Shown here piece by piece: positions 4,688 through 32,487 of a stretch of 34,280 nt of DNA. This DNA comes from an uncultured Ignavibacteriales bacterium (GTDB taxonomy: Bacteria > Zixibacteria > MSB-5A5 > GN15 > JAAZOE01), in the NCBI GenBank assembly GCA_964611355.1, contig CAZSYD010000025.1, forward strand, positions 1 to 34,280. The letters are read 5' to 3'. Numbering within the stretch: position 1 is the first letter of the stretch; every line of letters begins with the position of its first letter. The notes below the pieces were generated by a model, which worked only from the letters and a program-made list of their open reading frames with translations, was not told where the DNA came from and searched no databases. The position numbers were made by a program, and so were the translations under genes.

Positions 4688-5233
4688 CTAACCTTTTTCC
4701 ATCAAATTGGCCAGCCGTTTTCTGGCATAATAAAGGCGCGACATGACCGTCCCTTTGGGGATATCAAGAAGCATGGCGATTTCCTCGTAAGTCATCATGC
4801 GGAAATGATTGAGGTTGATTATTTCCCGGTCGGCGAAACTCAGTTTCCGCAACGCCAAAAACAGGCTTTTCTTTTCTTCGCGGCTCAAAAGTTCGCTCTC
4901 CGGCGTTTCCCGGTCAACCAGAAGGTGTTCAACTTCGGTCATATCGACCGTTCGCGCGCGGTTTATCTGCCGTTTACGCAGGAAATTGCGGCACAGGTTG
5001 GTTACTATGGAATAAAACCAGGGAAAGAACCGCTGCTTTTCATCGAATGTTTTGGCGGAACTGTAAACGCGCAAAAAAGCCTCCTGGGAAATATCATAGG
5101 CGTCATCGGAATTGCCGACCATACCCAGAGCCAGAAAATAGGCCTGCTTTTTATATTTTTCCACAAGGGCGGAAAGCGCCCTGACCCTGCCCCGCTTTAG
5201 CTGGGACATAAAAATGCTGTCTTCGTCGCTCAT
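4688..5233 (-). CDS. ECF RNA polymerase sigma factor (sigma-70 family)
   Basis: Region 2 DAYDISQEAFLRVY..FFPWFYSI..N and region 4 YEEIA..LDIPKGTVMSRLYYARK. Confidence 0.95.
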   Translation of the reverse strand: MSDEDSIFMSQLKRGRVRALSALVEKYKKQAYFLALGMVGNSDDAYDISQEAFLRVYSSAKTFDEKQRFFPWFYSIVTNLCRNFLRKRQINRARTVDMTEVEHLLVDRETPESELLSREEKKSLFLALRKLSFADREIINLNHFRMMTYEEIAMLLDIPKGTVMSRLYYARKRLANLMEKG

Positions 5234-5470
5234 AGGTTTCAGCTAATATACCGGAGGGGATAGATTTTATTCAATTGTTTTTCCGGCTGGGGGATAGGAC
5301 GATTTGGGTTCGTTTTGTCATTATTTCGGGGGCCCCAAACCGTATTCCCCCTGATTTGAGGCTTAGAGTTGTCGGCTCCCAATATGTATGAAGTATAAAC
5401 ATAAATCACCATAAATGCCGTTGTGGTCGGAATCAACTTAGATTTTGTAGTGATAGTGATTGCGGATAAA

Positions 5471-5554
5471 ACGCGCAGGTGCCCCGCCCATTCAGGGGTG
5501 GGGGAAGATTTCAATTAGACTAACCCCACGTCTAAAGACGTGGGGCACCCGCGT
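5471..5554. repeat. REP-doublet (REPIN-like) palindromic element, copy 1
   Basis: Two hairpins, CCCCGCCC-attcag-GGGTGGGG and CCCCACGTC-taaa-GACGTGGGG, inside inverted outer arms ACGCG..GGTGCCCC / GGGGCACC.CGCGT. Confidence 0.7.
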
Positions 5555-5577
5555 CCATCCGCTTGATTGCTTAAATA

Positions 5578-6036
5578 CTAAATGCCCAGAAGAGGCTTAA
5601 TCCACCACCCATGGATAAAGAAGAGACTATCATTCCAAAATCTAAATAGAGTGTAGGATATTATTGCAGCTGAGATTACCAGATAACCGACATATGTATT
5701 TTCTTTTTCAAGTGCTAAAATTGCTGAGATTGACAAAACGCAAGTTAAGAATCCAAGGAAGTAATAAAGGATATCAAAATCGATTTCTCTTGCAATTATA
5801 TAGATTTTTGTAAAAGAAACACAGATGGCTGCCCATGCAGAAACGACAAAGCAATTCCAAGTATTGGCTATAACCGCAGACACATAATATAATATTGGAC
5901 GCTTTATTTCGCCCGTATCGGAATTTAGAAGTAATGGGATGAATAATAACATTGGGCTTGTTAAAATCGCCAGTATGTATCGGACTATAAGACCTGCTAT
6001 TAAGGCAGTCAATAGATAGACTATTAAATTAACCAT
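5578..6036 (-). CDS. Hypothetical multi-pass membrane protein (~4 TM), AT-rich
   Basis: 152-aa ORF made mostly of hydrophobic helices. A sampled line (5701-5760) is about 33% GC. Confidence 0.7.
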   Translation of the reverse strand: MVNLIVYLLTALIAGLIVRYILAILTSPMLLFIPLLLNSDTGEIKRPILYYVSAVIANTWNCFVVSAWAAICVSFTKIYIIAREIDFDILYYFLGFLTCVLSISAILALEKENTYVGYLVISAAIISYTLFRFWNDSLFFIHGWWIKPLLGI

Positions 6037-6097
6037 ATTTCCGTCTTCCCAATATTGACTGGTACAACTTTATTGGTGAGATCTACGGACCACCCCA

Positions 6098-6168
6098 AGT
6101 GGCCACGTTTTTTGACGTGGGGTAAGTTCAATCGTCGATCCATCCCCAGCCCTGAAGGGGGGGATCCC
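6098..6168. repeat. REP-doublet (REPIN-like) element, degenerate copy 2, inverted relative to copy 1
   Basis: CCACGTTTTTTGACGTGGGGTAAGTTCAAT..TCCCCAGCCCTGAAGGGGGGGA aligns with the reverse complement of 5478-5549. Confidence 0.65.
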
Positions 6169-6188
6169 AGCTCTATTTTGTAAATCAC

Positions 6189-7028
6189 CTAATAAGCCAA
6201 TAGTTTCTTTAAGTTTTCCCAATTCCAACTATATAGGCGTCCTGCATTTGGTACCGGTGTGTAATTACCGTCTCTATACCCAATGACCTGTACAATGGGA
6301 ATGCGATTTCGGCGCGCCATTTCAACTTCCTTTAGGACACCTGCTGCCTTGTGGGTTTCAGGTCCGACCATTACGATGACAATATCAACTAATTTTATTC
6401 TTCTTTCTGCATCGGCCATCCAATTAGCTTGTGGTGCGGCTTCTTTCATTGAATAGTACGCAACCTCAAAGGGGGAATCGCCCTTCTTCGATTGACCAAT
6501 TAGAAAATGCTTCAACCGATTGTCGCTTTTGTAGTCAAAACTCAGGAAAATACGTTTCCTTAGAGTCGTGCGAGCAGAGCTTGGTGCGCGATTCTTAGCA
6601 GAAATGTCGTGGTTGAGTTTTTGTACAAAGAGTTTGGCTACCTTATCAGGAGGGGTGGCACCTTCTATATAGCCAATTGTATCCGGTATTTCAGGTATTG
6701 TCGTATCATCCAAACGAATTGGAAGAATATACTCTTTCATCTCATTGAGTGATGCTCTTTCATTAGCGAATTTCAACTCCATGCTAGTCCACATCTTCTC
6801 AGGATAGTATTTTGATATAAATACCATACAATAACGGGCAAGCACTCGGTAAACCTTGTCAAAGTAGGGCTGAAGATCCTTCCCCCAAAGAATGGATTGC
6901 TCATTCTGATCGTAGAAGACACTGATGTCGTGACGATCCAATTCGTTCGCGACAGATTCGGCGTAGTTTCTGTCCTCCCCCGCAAAAGATAGCACTACGT
7001 CGTATTCGTAATCGTTACCCTGATCCAT
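6189..7028 (-). CDS. Double TIR protein: N-terminal TIR_2-like domain plus C-terminal ThsB/DUF1863-like TIR
   Basis: N-terminal YDVVLSFAGEDR..VFYD..LWGKDL..FISKYY..WTSME..YILPIRLD. The C-terminal domain (6189-6563) reads RIFLSFDY..IVMVG..GVLKEV. Both keep a Glu at the catalytic position. Confidence 0.9.
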   Translation of the reverse strand: MDQGNDYEYDVVLSFAGEDRNYAESVANELDRHDISVFYDQNEQSILWGKDLQPYFDKVYRVLARYCMVFISKYYPEKMWTSMELKFANERASLNEMKEYILPIRLDDTTIPEIPDTIGYIEGATPPDKVAKLFVQKLNHDISAKNRAPSSARTTLRKRIFLSFDYKSDNRLKHFLIGQSKKGDSPFEVAYYSMKEAAPQANWMADAERRIKLVDIVIVMVGPETHKAAGVLKEVEMARRNRIPIVQVIGYRDGNYTPVPNAGRLYSWNWENLKKLLAY

Positions 7029-7052
7029 CTTTGATACTTCACCGCTTATGGT

Positions 7053-7424
7053 TCACTGAAGTAGTCCCTTCAAATTCTCCCAATTCCAACGGTATAGGTT
7101 ACCGGCGTTCGGAACGGCAGTATAGTTGCCATCCTTGTAGCCGATGAGCTGAACAATACGGATGTTATTCGCGCGTGCCATTTCAACTTCTTTCAGGACA
7201 CCCGGCGCACTGTGCGTCTTCGGGCCCACCATCACGATCACCAAATCGACCTTCTTGATTCGGTCTTCCGCGAATTGCTCCCAGTTGCGCTGTGGCGCAG
7301 CCTCTTTCATCGACCAGTCGGCCACGTCAAAGGGTGAATCGGGCAATCTCGACTGGCCAATAATAAAATCCTTCAACTTCTTGTCGTTGTCGAAGTCGAA
7401 GCTCACAAAAACACGCTTTTTCAT
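7053..7424 (-). CDS. ThsB-like (DUF1863/MTH538-type) TIR domain protein, 123 aa
   Basis: KRVFVSFDFDND..DWS.KE..RIKKVDLVIVMVG..T..GVLKEVEMA. ATG at 7424 has an AGGAG RBS and an ATGA overlap with the upstream TM gene. Confidence 0.85.
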   Translation of the reverse strand: MKKRVFVSFDFDNDKKLKDFIIGQSRLPDSPFDVADWSMKEAAPQRNWEQFAEDRIKKVDLVIVMVGPKTHSAPGVLKEVEMARANNIRIVQLIGYKDGNYTAVPNAGNLYRWNWENLKGLLQ

Positions 7425-7882
7425 AGTCCGAGTTCTCCTATGCATAGGGTCATGATTTTTCCAAGGCCTTTGAGCAACCTAAACACCATTGGAACAAGCC
7501 AAACGGCTGTAATGGTCAAGAGTATTGCGCCATGAAACCATCGCAAAGTTATGGACCAAGTCACCTTCAGCCATGAGACCACTTCGGCTTCCACTGGTGA
7601 TGTGTTCATGGAGAAATCAATGTCGTCCTCGCCCATTAACCTGACCTTGTCATAGAGTTTGCGGAACAATCGTTCCTGCCGAAGGAAATAACCGTCCAAG
7701 AGCCAGAACACAGTTGCCGGCAAATAAGCCAAGCAGGCGAGTTGTGATTTTGATTCGCCCGATGCCAAAGCGAAAATTGCCGACACTAAAACTACATTCC
7801 ATCCTTTTAGCAAGAAAGAATTCTTGGCCATTCTGCTAATGACAGCCTGTATCATTTCAAGATGCTTCAGTTTCTTTTCCAT
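7421..7882 (-). CDS. Conserved small 3-TM protein, putative defence effector
   Basis: HLEMIQAVISRMAKNSFLLKGW and FWLLDGYFLRQERLFRKLYD motifs, three hydrophobic segments, translationally coupled to the TIR gene. Confidence 0.8.
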   Translation of the reverse strand: MEKKLKHLEMIQAVISRMAKNSFLLKGWNVVLVSAIFALASGESKSQLACLAYLPATVFWLLDGYFLRQERLFRKLYDKVRLMGEDDIDFSMNTSPVEAEVVSWLKVTWSITLRWFHGAILLTITAVWLVPMVFRLLKGLGKIMTLCIGELGL

Positions 7883-8113
7883 CCCGATTCCCGCCCATCG
7901 ATTCTAGGCCACTCCGGGTTGCAAAATGTCTGGACATTATCAAAGCAGCCCATCCCAGCTTCGCCGGGATAGATCCCCGCTTTGTAATTGCCACTCATCC
8001 TCTGAATTCTCCTGCAGCGCGTTTTGTGATTAAAATCTAATCAATTCTGTTTCTTTTCGCAAGCCGTAAAATGCAATGATGTCATTTTTGCCAGCATAAA
8101 AAACAGCGGACTT

Positions 8114-8153
8114 GAGATTGCCACACCTAGACTTCGTCGAGGTTCGCAATGAC
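8114..8153. repeat. Palindromic repeat half-element of the GAGATTGC...GCAATGAC type
   Basis: GAGATTGCCACACCTAGACTTCGTCGAGGTTCGCAATGAC folds into a hairpin and matches a widespread REP/RPE-like repeat pattern. Confidence 0.55.
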
Positions 8154-8246
8154 GTCGGCCGCCGTGGATGGTGAGGGGAATGATTACAGTTAGTAGATAG
8201 TACGTTGGGTTCCAGACAAGCCCTGTAGGTATTGATCTACAAATAA

Positions 8247-10048
8247 TTATTTTTTCTCCCCGGTCATGCGGGCGAGTTCTTTTTTTAGTTCGGGGCCGGT
8301 GACTTTTTTTATGGAAATTATATTGCGTCCGTTTTTTAGCGATTTGGTAACCGCCAGATGGTGATCGGCTTTAGCCGCTATCGCAGGAAGATGGCTGATA
8401 GTGATAACCTGATGCTTTTTTGAGAGTTCTTTCAGCTTTTCCGCGAGTTTGATCGCCGTCCGTCCGCCGATGCCGGTATCGATCTCGTCGAAGATTATGG
8501 TTGGAAGCTTATACTTTCCGGCAATGACGGTCAGAAGCGCCAGCATAATGCGCGAAATCTCACCCCCGGAGGCGATCTTGATAAGCGGCCGGAGCGGCTC
8601 GTTGGGATTGGTGGAAATGAGAAATTCGATATTCTCAAGGCCGTGCGGAGAGGCTTTAATCTTTTCGCCGTCCAGATCAAAACCGTTCTCATCCGGTTCG
8701 TATTGAAAGTCGATTTTGAAACGGGCTTTCGNNNNNNNNNNNNNNNNNNNNNNNNNNNNNNNNNNNNNNNNNNNNNNNNNNNNNNNNNNNNNNNNNNNNN
8801 NNNNNNNNNNNNNNNNNNNNNNNNNNNNNNNTCAAAACCGTTCTCATCCGGTTCGTATTGAAAGTCGATTTTGAAACGGGCTTTCGCGATCGCCAGATCG
8901 GCCAGTTGTTCGACGACTTTTTTCTCAAGGCGGCCGGCGGCCTTTTTTCTTTTTTCGGAAACGGCAAGCGCAAGATTATGATAAGATGTTCGTGATTTGG
9001 TCAGTTTTTCGGTCAGACTTTTTATCAACATATTATAATCGCCGGCGCCCTGAGACTGATTCTTCAGTTCCTCAAGTTTGGCCGGCAGACCGGCTTCGTT
9101 GGTATTATATTTCTTCTTCAGCCGATAAAGCTCGGCCAACCTCGAATTGATAAATTCCAACCTTTCCGGATTATCTTCCAGACCGGAAAAATACGACTCC
9201 AGGTTCCGGGTCATCTCATTAAGATTTATGATGCTTTCGGTCAGCAGCGATGCCTCACCGGAGAGTTGCCTGTCAATTCCGGCCGCATTTTTAAGCTGTT
9301 TATCGAGCCGGGACAGAATAGACAGGACGCAATTATCGTTTTCGCTGACATCGTCTATAATCGTCCGTCCGGTATCCATCAATGTCTGGACCGATTCCAG
9401 CCGTTTCCGTTCGGACTCAAGTTTCTCTTCTTCGCCGATATGGATATTTGCTTTTGTTAGCTCGTCGATCTGGAAATTGATCAGTTCCAGTTTTTCCCGC
9501 ACGGCGGCGGCGTTGTTTCTGGCTTCGTTCAGTTGCTTGTTAAGCGAGGTAAAATCCGCAAACAATTCGGCCAGTTTCTCGACATCGTCGGAAAGCCCGG
9601 AAAAGCTGTCAAGGAAGTCGATATGTCTTTCCACCTCCAGCAAATGCCGGTGACCCTGCTGGGAATGAAAGTCGGCCAGAACGGATGCGGCCTGGCGAAT
9701 CTTTGAGATATTTTCCGGTCGGCCTTCGACATAACCTTTGGATAACCCGGTAGCCCAAACCTCGCGACTCAAAGACAGATTGGCATTAAGCGGTATTTCG
9801 AATTGTTCCTGAATACGACGCCTTAGAGGAGAGCCGGACAGGTCAAACTTGGCCTCGGCCGAGGCTTTTTTTTCGCCGTGCCTGATGAATTCCTTATCGG
9901 ACCGGCCACCGAGAGTTAAAAGAAGTCCGCCGATAATGACCGATTTCCCTGCGCCGGTTTCGCCGGTTAGGACGGTAAGCCCCAGACCGAAGTCAACTTC
10001 GATCTGATCGACCAGGGCGTAGTTTTTTAGGATCAGTTTCCTGAGCAA
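8247..10048 (-). CDS. recN: DNA repair protein RecN (intact, 548 aa, once the false gap is closed)
   Basis: Walker A GETGAGKS, signature ASGGE, Walker B IFDEIDTGIGG and ISHLP. Removing 100 N plus the 55-bp duplicate gives a 1647-nt in-frame ORF. Confidence 0.95.
8677..8886. other. Assembly gap (N 8732-8831) flanked by an identical 55-bp duplicate
   Basis: 8677-8731 is identical to 8832-8886. Confidence 0.95.
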
Positions 10049-28972: not shown

Positions 28973-28989
28973 AATATGCTGTTATAAAA

Positions 28990-32387: not shown

Positions 32388-32487
32388 NNNNNNNNNNNNN
32401 NNNNNNNNNNNNNNNNNNNNNNNNNNNNNNNNNNNNNNNNNNNNNNNNNNNNNNNNNNNNNNNNNNNNNNNNNNNNNNNNNNNNNNN
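32388..32487. other. Assembly gap (100 N) with no flank overlap
   Basis: N run within the PAS region. True length unknown. Confidence 0.95.

Follow-up and report, generated by a model that had tools for sequence, protein, structure and literature searches.

The 34,280-nt contig CAZSYD010000025.1 from the assembly GCA_964611355.1 of an uncultured Ignavibacteriales bacterium (further referred to as the window, meaning this whole stretch of DNA) carries a compact cassette of three genes. They encode a small membrane protein with three predicted transmembrane (TM) segments, a short ThsB-like TIR protein that we call the mini-TIR, and a fusion of a TIR_2 domain with a second mini-TIR domain. We interpret the locus as probably being a Thoeris-type abortive-infection cassette of the PDC-M50, or type V-like, kind, in which a signal made by the TIR proteins would act on a membrane effector. 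The pairing at its core, a TIR gene with a PDC-M50A-type gene, is already catalogued and has probably been validated by experiment elsewhere. The unusual features of the locus are the short mini-TIR partner and the TIR-TIR fusion.

The genes are co-directional and tightly packed in the order TM gene, mini-TIR gene, fusion gene (Table 1). The listed open reading frame (ORF) of the second gene, 7053..7445, contains an internal ATG at 7424, giving a 123-aa protein that starts with MKKRVF. This ATG (7424–7422) overlaps the TGA stop codon of the TM gene (7423–7421) as ATGA, and the gap between the second and the third gene is 24 nt (7029–7052). A three-gene minus-strand operon with exactly this overlap and gap had been reported in the preliminary description of the locus, which, as a description, turned out to be correct in every particular that could be checked. 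A scan of the region 5200–8400 for promoters and terminators gave counts no higher than in shuffled sequence.

Table 1. Positions of the cassette genes, their TIR domains and the surrounding insertion in the window
Feature	Position	Strand	Basis
Small 3-TM membrane protein, 153 aa, PDC-M50A family, putative effector	7421..7882	-	ORF and PADLOC profile match
ThsB-like mini-TIR, 123 aa; catalytic Glu79 codon 7188-7190	7053..7424	-	Pfam, PADLOC, AlphaFold2 fold
TIR_2 + mini-TIR fusion protein, 279 aa	6189..7028	-	Pfam TIR_2 and ThsB_TIR; PADLOC PDC-S66
TIR_2 domain of the fusion, residues 11-124; Glu84 (WTSMEL) codon 6777-6779	6657..6998	-	Pfam, AbTIR alignment
ThsB_TIR domain of the fusion, residues 161-248; Glu234 (GVLKEV) codon 6327-6329	6285..6548	-	Pfam, alignment
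Insertion of about 3 kb between recN (stop 8247) and the ECF sigma gene (start 5233)	5234..8246	.	Empty site in relatives, GC content, blastn

Defence profiles were taken from PADLOC-DB v2.0.0 (2023), where PDC-M50 is a candidate system with a small TM protein as component A and a TIR-like protein as component B. The TM protein of the window matches the PDC-M50A profile PDLC04686 with an E-value of 1.5e-50 (169 bits; residues 1–129 against model positions 1–130 of 134), and the three other PDC-M50A models with E-values from 4e-39 to 2.1e-23. It has no match in Pfam or NCBIfam. Its hydrophobic segments, as judged by hydropathy, span approximately residues 28–44, 47–63 and 115–138, the N-terminus is a basic amphipathic helix, and the AlphaFold2 model (predicted local distance difference test, pLDDT, 95.9) consists of three long helices. 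The conserved polar residues H7, Q12, R17, S22, K26, W60, D63, E70, R74, Y77, S110 and T112 would lie in segments facing the cytoplasm. A Foldseek comparison of the model with the PDB produced nothing at E≤0.001. The best Z-score in the VIA wide search was 9.2, against a caution level of about 13 for helical proteins, and all matches were generic helical hairpins. The nearest named clusters in the ESM Atlas, DUF3278-like (0.91) and 8xMP (0.84), are treated as leads only. The prediction of a four-copy complex scored 0.06 and 0.25 against a mark of 0.42, values that have no bearing on oligomerisation either way.

All three TIR domains of the cassette retain the catalytic Glu, so that Pfam and the alignments agree with the preliminary description, which had placed a Glu at the catalytic position of each. 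The mini-TIR matches the Pfam family ThsB_TIR (E 3e-7), and the fusion matches TIR_2 (E 1.4e-18) followed by ThsB_TIR (E 9.4e-6). The mini-TIR and the C-terminal half of the fusion are 70% identical (86 of 122 residues), and the motif GVLKEV occurs in both, with the Glu at positions 79 and 234, respectively; WTSMEL occurs once, around E84 of the fusion. WTSMEL aligns with WTNYEL of AbTIR (chains 7uwg and 8g83), the Glu of which we take to be the catalytic residue of AbTIR. The KEVE segment of the mini-TIR aligns with YEIE of chain 8wcf, titled EcThsB, and E79 is invariant among the aligned mini-TIR sequences (43/43). The AlphaFold2 model of the mini-TIR (pLDDT 89.4) has its best Foldseek matches in the Bacillus cereus TIR 8fz9 (E 1.2e-6, TMq 0.76) and in EcThsB 8wcf, and resembles also the TIR domain of SARM1 and the related N-glycosidases DNPH1 and MilB. 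The mini-TIR and the fusion both combine a TIR/flavodoxin-like fold with a conserved catalytic Glu, the two features by which enzymatic TIRs are recognised. Among PADLOC profiles, the mini-TIR matches ThsB1 (E 3e-8) and, at 24.7 bits, PDC-M50B (PDLC04688), while the N-terminal half of the fusion matches PDC-S66 (E 7.6e-17). The sole NCBIfam match is a sub-threshold TIR in the fusion protein (39.6 bits against a cut-off of 600).

With its 123 residues, the mini-TIR is shorter than the ThsB-type partners in the other loci examined (147–270 aa). Its relatives are mostly proteins of about 198 aa with an N-terminal Cys/His motif and a Gly-rich hydrophobic segment. In several of them (P0473, P0460, P0430 and P0401; loci L103–L180) the motif has the form Cys...Cys...Cys..His; examples come from Burkholderia, Limnohabitans and Rhodoferax, and many adjoin a gene of the TM family. 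The fusion of TIR_2 with a mini-TIR is rare: full-length homologues make up 4 of 601 hits (66–79% identity), and two metagenome loci, L101 and L102, carry it. The metagenome contig of L101 has the same trio of TM, mini-TIR and fusion genes. Locus L102 (1224–5092) contains the mini-TIR and the TIR-TIR fusion without a 3-TM gene, downstream of a 614-aa multi-TM protein that matches no PADLOC family and could be an alternative effector. The TIR_2 half of the fusion shares 46% identity with the TIR_2 that lies, in L074, upstream of another TM and ThsB pair. In the tree of mini-TIR domains, which is poorly resolved, the mini-TIR of the window groups with its counterpart from L101 (98/99) and not with the domain of its own fusion; therefore the mini-TIR duplication is older than the split between these two loci.

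The TM family is large, with 1813 homologue hits at E≤0.001, at least 4176 representatives at 50% identity (E≤0.001; 2181 of them at E≤1e-10) and at least 555 confirmed loci in species-representative genomes. The 80 loci kept from such genomes come from many bacterial phyla and some archaea. Homologues were also found on 142 plasmid records, 84 of these plasmids being predicted to be conjugative, with hosts that include Klebsiella, Escherichia, Campylobacter and Priestia; among the 25 plasmid homologues listed, 23 are annotated as hypothetical proteins and two have no annotated feature.

Linkage was assessed in a sample of 85 loci (L002–L086), where script-called ORFs within 300 bp of the TM gene were scanned with Pfam (135 of 139 ORFs; four very long ones, two in L026 and one each in L057 and L082, were left out). 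A neighbour from the families ThsB_TIR, TIR_2, TIR or CAP12-PCTIR_TIR was present in 51 of the 85 loci, and in five of them (L002, L025, L029, L071, L074) TIR genes stand on both sides of the TM gene. Approached from the mini-TIR side, 38 of 80 metagenome loci contain a TM homologue; these loci had been found with the fusion protein as a query, mostly through its mini-TIR half. The association of the two families, for which the preliminary description had suggested a test, is real: it is strong but not universal. In L088, L093 and L193 the partner of the TM protein is a full-length type I-like ThsB (PADLOC ThsB1, E 4.8e-88, 1.5e-81 and 4.7e-48). A SLOG cluster3 gene adjoins the TM gene in L014 (4433–5131), and the 378-aa protein P0136 joins a SLOG cluster2 domain and the TM domain in one chain; thus SLOG can also take the place of TIR as the partner of the TM module. 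Across a changing set of partners (ThsB_TIR, TIR_2, CAP12-PCTIR_TIR, SLOG) the TM protein remains the same, as would be expected if it were an effector module with exchangeable sensors or synthases. Other neighbours of TM genes include restriction-modification genes, DndB, a STAND NTPase, integrases and a prophage tape-measure gene. Two Bacteroidota loci have a strong PDC-M50A match and no TIR neighbour: L194 (1486–3349), with a GH25 muramidase and a MazG-like gene in an arrangement that may be a lysis cassette, and L198 (717–1929), next to AbiGi.

The closest experimentally studied counterpart is provided by Yirmiya et al. (bioRxiv 10.64898/2025.12.03.692087, December 2025), who annotated 29 putative Thoeris types and verified seven new ones. 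According to this preprint, type V Thoeris consists of ThsB and ThsF and protects against phage, the validated ThsF proteins being those from B. thuringiensis DAR 81934 and Bacillus sp. 1NLA3E. ThsF is annotated there as PF10028 (DUF2270) with three predicted membrane-spanning helices; in AlphaFold3 models seven protomers form a channel-like ring and have basic pockets between them. In one of the two tested type V systems, ThsF responds to 3' cyclic ADP-ribose (3'cADPR) as its activator. The TIRs linked to DUF2270 cluster with type I ThsB, and the frequency of type V is 1.2%. The authors caution that Thoeris effector annotations are noisy and rest on representatives. No other relevant paper was found in the literature search for DUF2270 and ThsF; the text of Payne et al. 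(10.1101/2024.01.29.577857), as far as it was accessible, mentions TIR in a figure legend.

The preliminary description had proposed a candidate new system with an effector of an uncharacterised type. The TM protein is a full-length match to the catalogued PDC-M50A, and ThsB with a three-TM effector has been validated as type V Thoeris (bioRxiv 10.64898/2025.12.03.692087), so that for the most part the locus corresponds to an already described system. The proposal of a Thoeris-like TIR module that lacks ThsA and has the 3-TM protein as its sole plausible effector stands, and that of a new type does not. The data neither bear out nor overturn its further suggestion of a different signal molecule or direct TIR contact. 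With PDC-M50 the cassette shares component A and an adjacent TIR gene on the same strand with the ATGA overlap; it differs in having a TIR partner of the shorter 123-aa subtype and in the additional third gene. With type V it shares the adjacent TIR with a catalytic Glu and the small effector made up of three membrane helices without any further domain, and relatives of the TM protein pair with type I-like ThsB. It differs from type V in that the TM protein of the window is not a Pfam DUF2270 protein and its TIRs do not belong to the type I kind of ThsB.

Comparison of profiles and neighbourhoods makes it likely that ThsF and PDC-M50A are the same family. The type I-like ThsB partners in L088, L093 and L193 fit the clustering of DUF2270-linked TIRs with type I ThsB in the preprint. 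Among 401 Bacillales genomes seven carry PDC-M50A, as do seven among 301 Bacteroidota genomes, each count including the centre genome chosen for carrying the family, and these frequencies are of the same order as the 1.2% given for type V. Weak DUF2270 hits were obtained for 16 of 91 TM-family members, and one relative, P0143 (58% identical to the TM protein of the window; PDC-M50A E 2.8e-49), reaches the threshold with 25.2 bits against the Pfam cut-off of 25. Two of the four weak DUF2270 hits in Bacilli were examined: L088 has a PDC-M50A gene with a ThsB gene after it, and in L091 neither a TM-family nor a TIR ORF was seen. Over the cut-off, PF10028 occurs in none of 401 Bacilli genomes and in one of 301 Bacteroidota, where it is not TIR-linked; it was likewise found in none of 285 genomes from the phylum of the window and in none of four genomes carrying the TM family. 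A formal DUF2270 assignment of the TM protein was considered and rejected, and the relation is kept as a weak likeness.

Other Thoeris types are more distant. Type I differs by its ThsA (SIR2-SLOG), which is absent from the operon of the window. In the whole genome, which is 96% complete, there was no match at E≤0.01 to PDLC00407, the sole ThsA model searched, and the TIR_2 and ThsB_TIR matches of the cassette are the only ones in this genome. Type II (ThsB with a Macro-TM effector and His-ADPR as the signal; bioRxiv 10.64898/2025.12.03.692087) is similar in that a TIR signal activates a membrane-spanning effector; unlike it, the effector of the window has no soluble sensor domain, and no Macro match was obtained for any ORF of the insertion that carries the cassette. 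According to Pfam and PADLOC, the four ORFs of this insertion also contain no SIR2, SLOG, caspase, CD-NTase or nuclease domain, which upholds the earlier remark that such genes, and Macro ones, are missing. Type VII (ThsB with the SLATT effector ThsH and canonical cADPR) and the SLATT proteins of the cyclic-oligonucleotide system CBASS have in common with our locus a small helical TM effector with TIR or SLOG partners, and the SLOG-TM chain P0136 belongs to the same TM family as the protein of the window. Here the difference is that the TM protein of the window gives no Pfam SLATT match at E≤10. A SLATT identity was tried and rejected on this ground, although a remote kinship could escape such a search; neither was SLATT among the 25 of 48 families listed for the 91 TM-family members scanned.

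The mechanism that we propose as the most likely one is modelled on the type V precedent. The mini-TIR and the two-TIR fusion, their catalytic Glu residues being intact, would serve as phage sensors and signal synthases. Upon infection they would convert NAD+ into a second messenger derived from ADP-ribose (ADPR), possibly one akin to 3'cADPR. The messenger may bind a conserved, partly basic pocket on what appears to be the cytoplasmic face of the 3-TM protein, presumably in an oligomeric state; the candidate pocket residues are H7, Q12, R17, S22, K26, D63, E70, R74 and Y77. The activated protein would then breach or depolarise the membrane and so stop phage replication, the outcome being abortive infection. 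The fusion gene would add two further TIR sensors and thereby probably extend recognition to more phages. It is common for Thoeris loci to contain several divergent thsB genes, and this role has been hypothesised for them in an earlier preprint (bioRxiv 10.1101/2021.01.06.425286).

A number of observations weigh against this interpretation. The TIRs of the window form a short divergent subtype, no member of which has, to our knowledge, been tested, and the match to PDC-M50B is weak (E 5.6e-6 over 96 of 162 model positions, 59%). There is no recognised TIR within 300 bp in 34 of the 85 loci, some of which are ended by the contig edge, and in Bacteroidota the linkage is weaker (a ThsB neighbour in two of seven loci). 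The literature search found no paper using the name PDC-M50. As regards identity with ThsF, the TM protein has no Pfam DUF2270 match even at E≤10, and hhalign of the TM family against 46 genuine DUF2270 proteins gave a probability of 9.1% (E 0.0036, 53 columns), or 0.9% against one such protein. Family members sourced from the Joint Genome Institute (JGI) are hypothetical proteins without precomputed Pfam domains, whereas JGI DUF2270 proteins carry PF10028. Finally, the second of the type V systems studied by Yirmiya et al. is unresponsive to 3'cADPR, and the limitations section of the same preprint allows that in unverified types the TIR itself could be an NAD-depleting effector.

If PDC-M50A were not ThsF, the pairing of a mini-TIR with the 3-TM protein would be a separate, experimentally unexplored Thoeris type with a signal of its own, and the rare fusion could carry out a synthesis in two steps; we regard this as doubtful. 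In this variant, the TIR_2 domain could make an ADPR derivative, the mini-TIR, which resembles N-glycosidases, could modify it, and the resulting ligand could be read directly by the 3-TM protein that has no known sensor domain.

The roles of the two components could also be reversed, so that the TIR domains are toxic NAD+-depleting effectors, the membrane protein is a sensor, an anchor or a regulator, and no diffusible signal is involved. Apart from the reservation of Yirmiya et al. just mentioned, this agrees with the TM genes of L054 and L071, located beside proteins with a TIR of the CAP12/Pycsar effector type, and with the related mini-TIRs fused to a Gly-rich, membrane-like segment. It is unlikely in view of the constancy of the TM protein while TIR or SLOG partners vary, the full-length type I-like ThsB partners in three other loci, and the absence from the 123-aa TIR of any sensor domain for coupling to the membrane protein; moreover, signalling through 3'cADPR is reported for a ThsB with a three-TM effector (bioRxiv 10.64898/2025.12.03.692087). 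A signal would be unnecessary, too, if the TIR proteins, on sensing the phage, bound the membrane protein and opened it by direct contact. The tight translational coupling of the genes through the ATGA overlap is compatible with this, and so are the absence of a recognised ligand-binding domain from the TM protein and P0238, apparently a single chain of TM and ThsB_TIR, although that chain is possibly a gene-calling artefact. The invariance of the catalytic Glu in all 43 mini-TIRs, however, argues for enzyme activity and not for a pure adaptor, and the pairing of the TM family with at least three TIR families and SLOG is hard to square with a specific interface, so we consider direct contact quite improbable.

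The least probable explanation, to which we give very little weight, is that the cassette has no immune function and is a membrane-stress or toxin-antitoxin-like module, or a holin-like lysis function on mobile DNA. We know of no experiment on the mini-TIR subtype that would speak against it, and some members of the TM family are not TIR-linked, as in L194 and L198. Against it stand the three TIR domains with catalytic residues in the cassette, the presence of family members elsewhere among defence genes (restriction-modification, DndB, STAND), the listing of the family as a PADLOC defence candidate, and the validation of a like pair by Yirmiya et al.

The genomic setting agrees with the earlier reading of the locus as an accessory island after recN. 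In four of 11 related genomes (L183, L189, L190 and L192) recN is followed, after 131–228 nt, by the genes that also border the locus of the window, those for an extracytoplasmic function (ECF) sigma factor, an anti-sigma factor and a YbjQ-like protein; the corresponding gap between recN and the ECF sigma gene in the window is 3013 nt, and the site is therefore empty in these relatives. In the other seven, the genes that come after recN are different and match none of these. The GC content of the inserted stretch is 0.443 compared to 0.493 for the window. Blastn aligns the window with L101 at 82% identity over 1688 nt, and the part of the insertion common to other cassettes is 6205–7890 alone, that is, exactly the three genes. 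The closest genome relative, L007 (recorded as uncultured Nitrospiraceae), is 77% identical over 825 nt and carries the TM gene and the mini-TIR without the fusion; hence the third gene is an addition to a two-gene core. The distribution of the TM family among relatives is patchy (6 of 61 genomes, the one of the window included). We conclude that the cassette is probably a horizontally acquired, self-contained unit at a conserved insertion site. A search for att-like boundaries detected no direct repeat flanking the island, and the nearest tRNA genes are at 28989 and 29103. Genomes G008 (L004, L183) and G010 (L002, L189) have an empty junction between recN and the sigma gene and TM-TIR pairs of their own at other loci; therefore members of one bacterial family gained such cassettes in separate events and at different sites.

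Downstream of the cassette, the insertion contains a 152-aa hydrophobic orphan ORF, orf152 (5578–6036, minus strand; local GC 0.413). It is bracketed by 30-nt inverted repeats (5514–5543 and 6103–6132) that are 83% complementary, each with a hairpin of its own. We considered orf152 as a fourth component and rejected it: it has no Pfam, PADLOC or NCBIfam match, falls below the mark in the ESM Atlas, and by tblastn is absent from all other fetched loci. The window also includes two runs of exactly 100 N (8732–8831 and 32388–32487). The first of them lies inside recN, which for this reason is seen as two ORFs (8247–8546 and 8531–10048).

Since the pairing of TIR with PDC-M50A-type proteins is already catalogued and probably validated, the locus enlarges the known set by one member without introducing a new principle. 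It is valuable as a compact variant, with a 123-aa mini-TIR and three TIR domains of two kinds serving one effector, for which relatives suitable for comparison exist in the two-gene L007 and the three-gene L101. The cassette is convenient for asking whether different TIRs of one locus make the same signal, and how a 3-TM protein without a known sensor domain reads it. For the annotation of such systems it matters that Pfam does not extend the DUF2270 label of ThsF to the greater part of the TM family.

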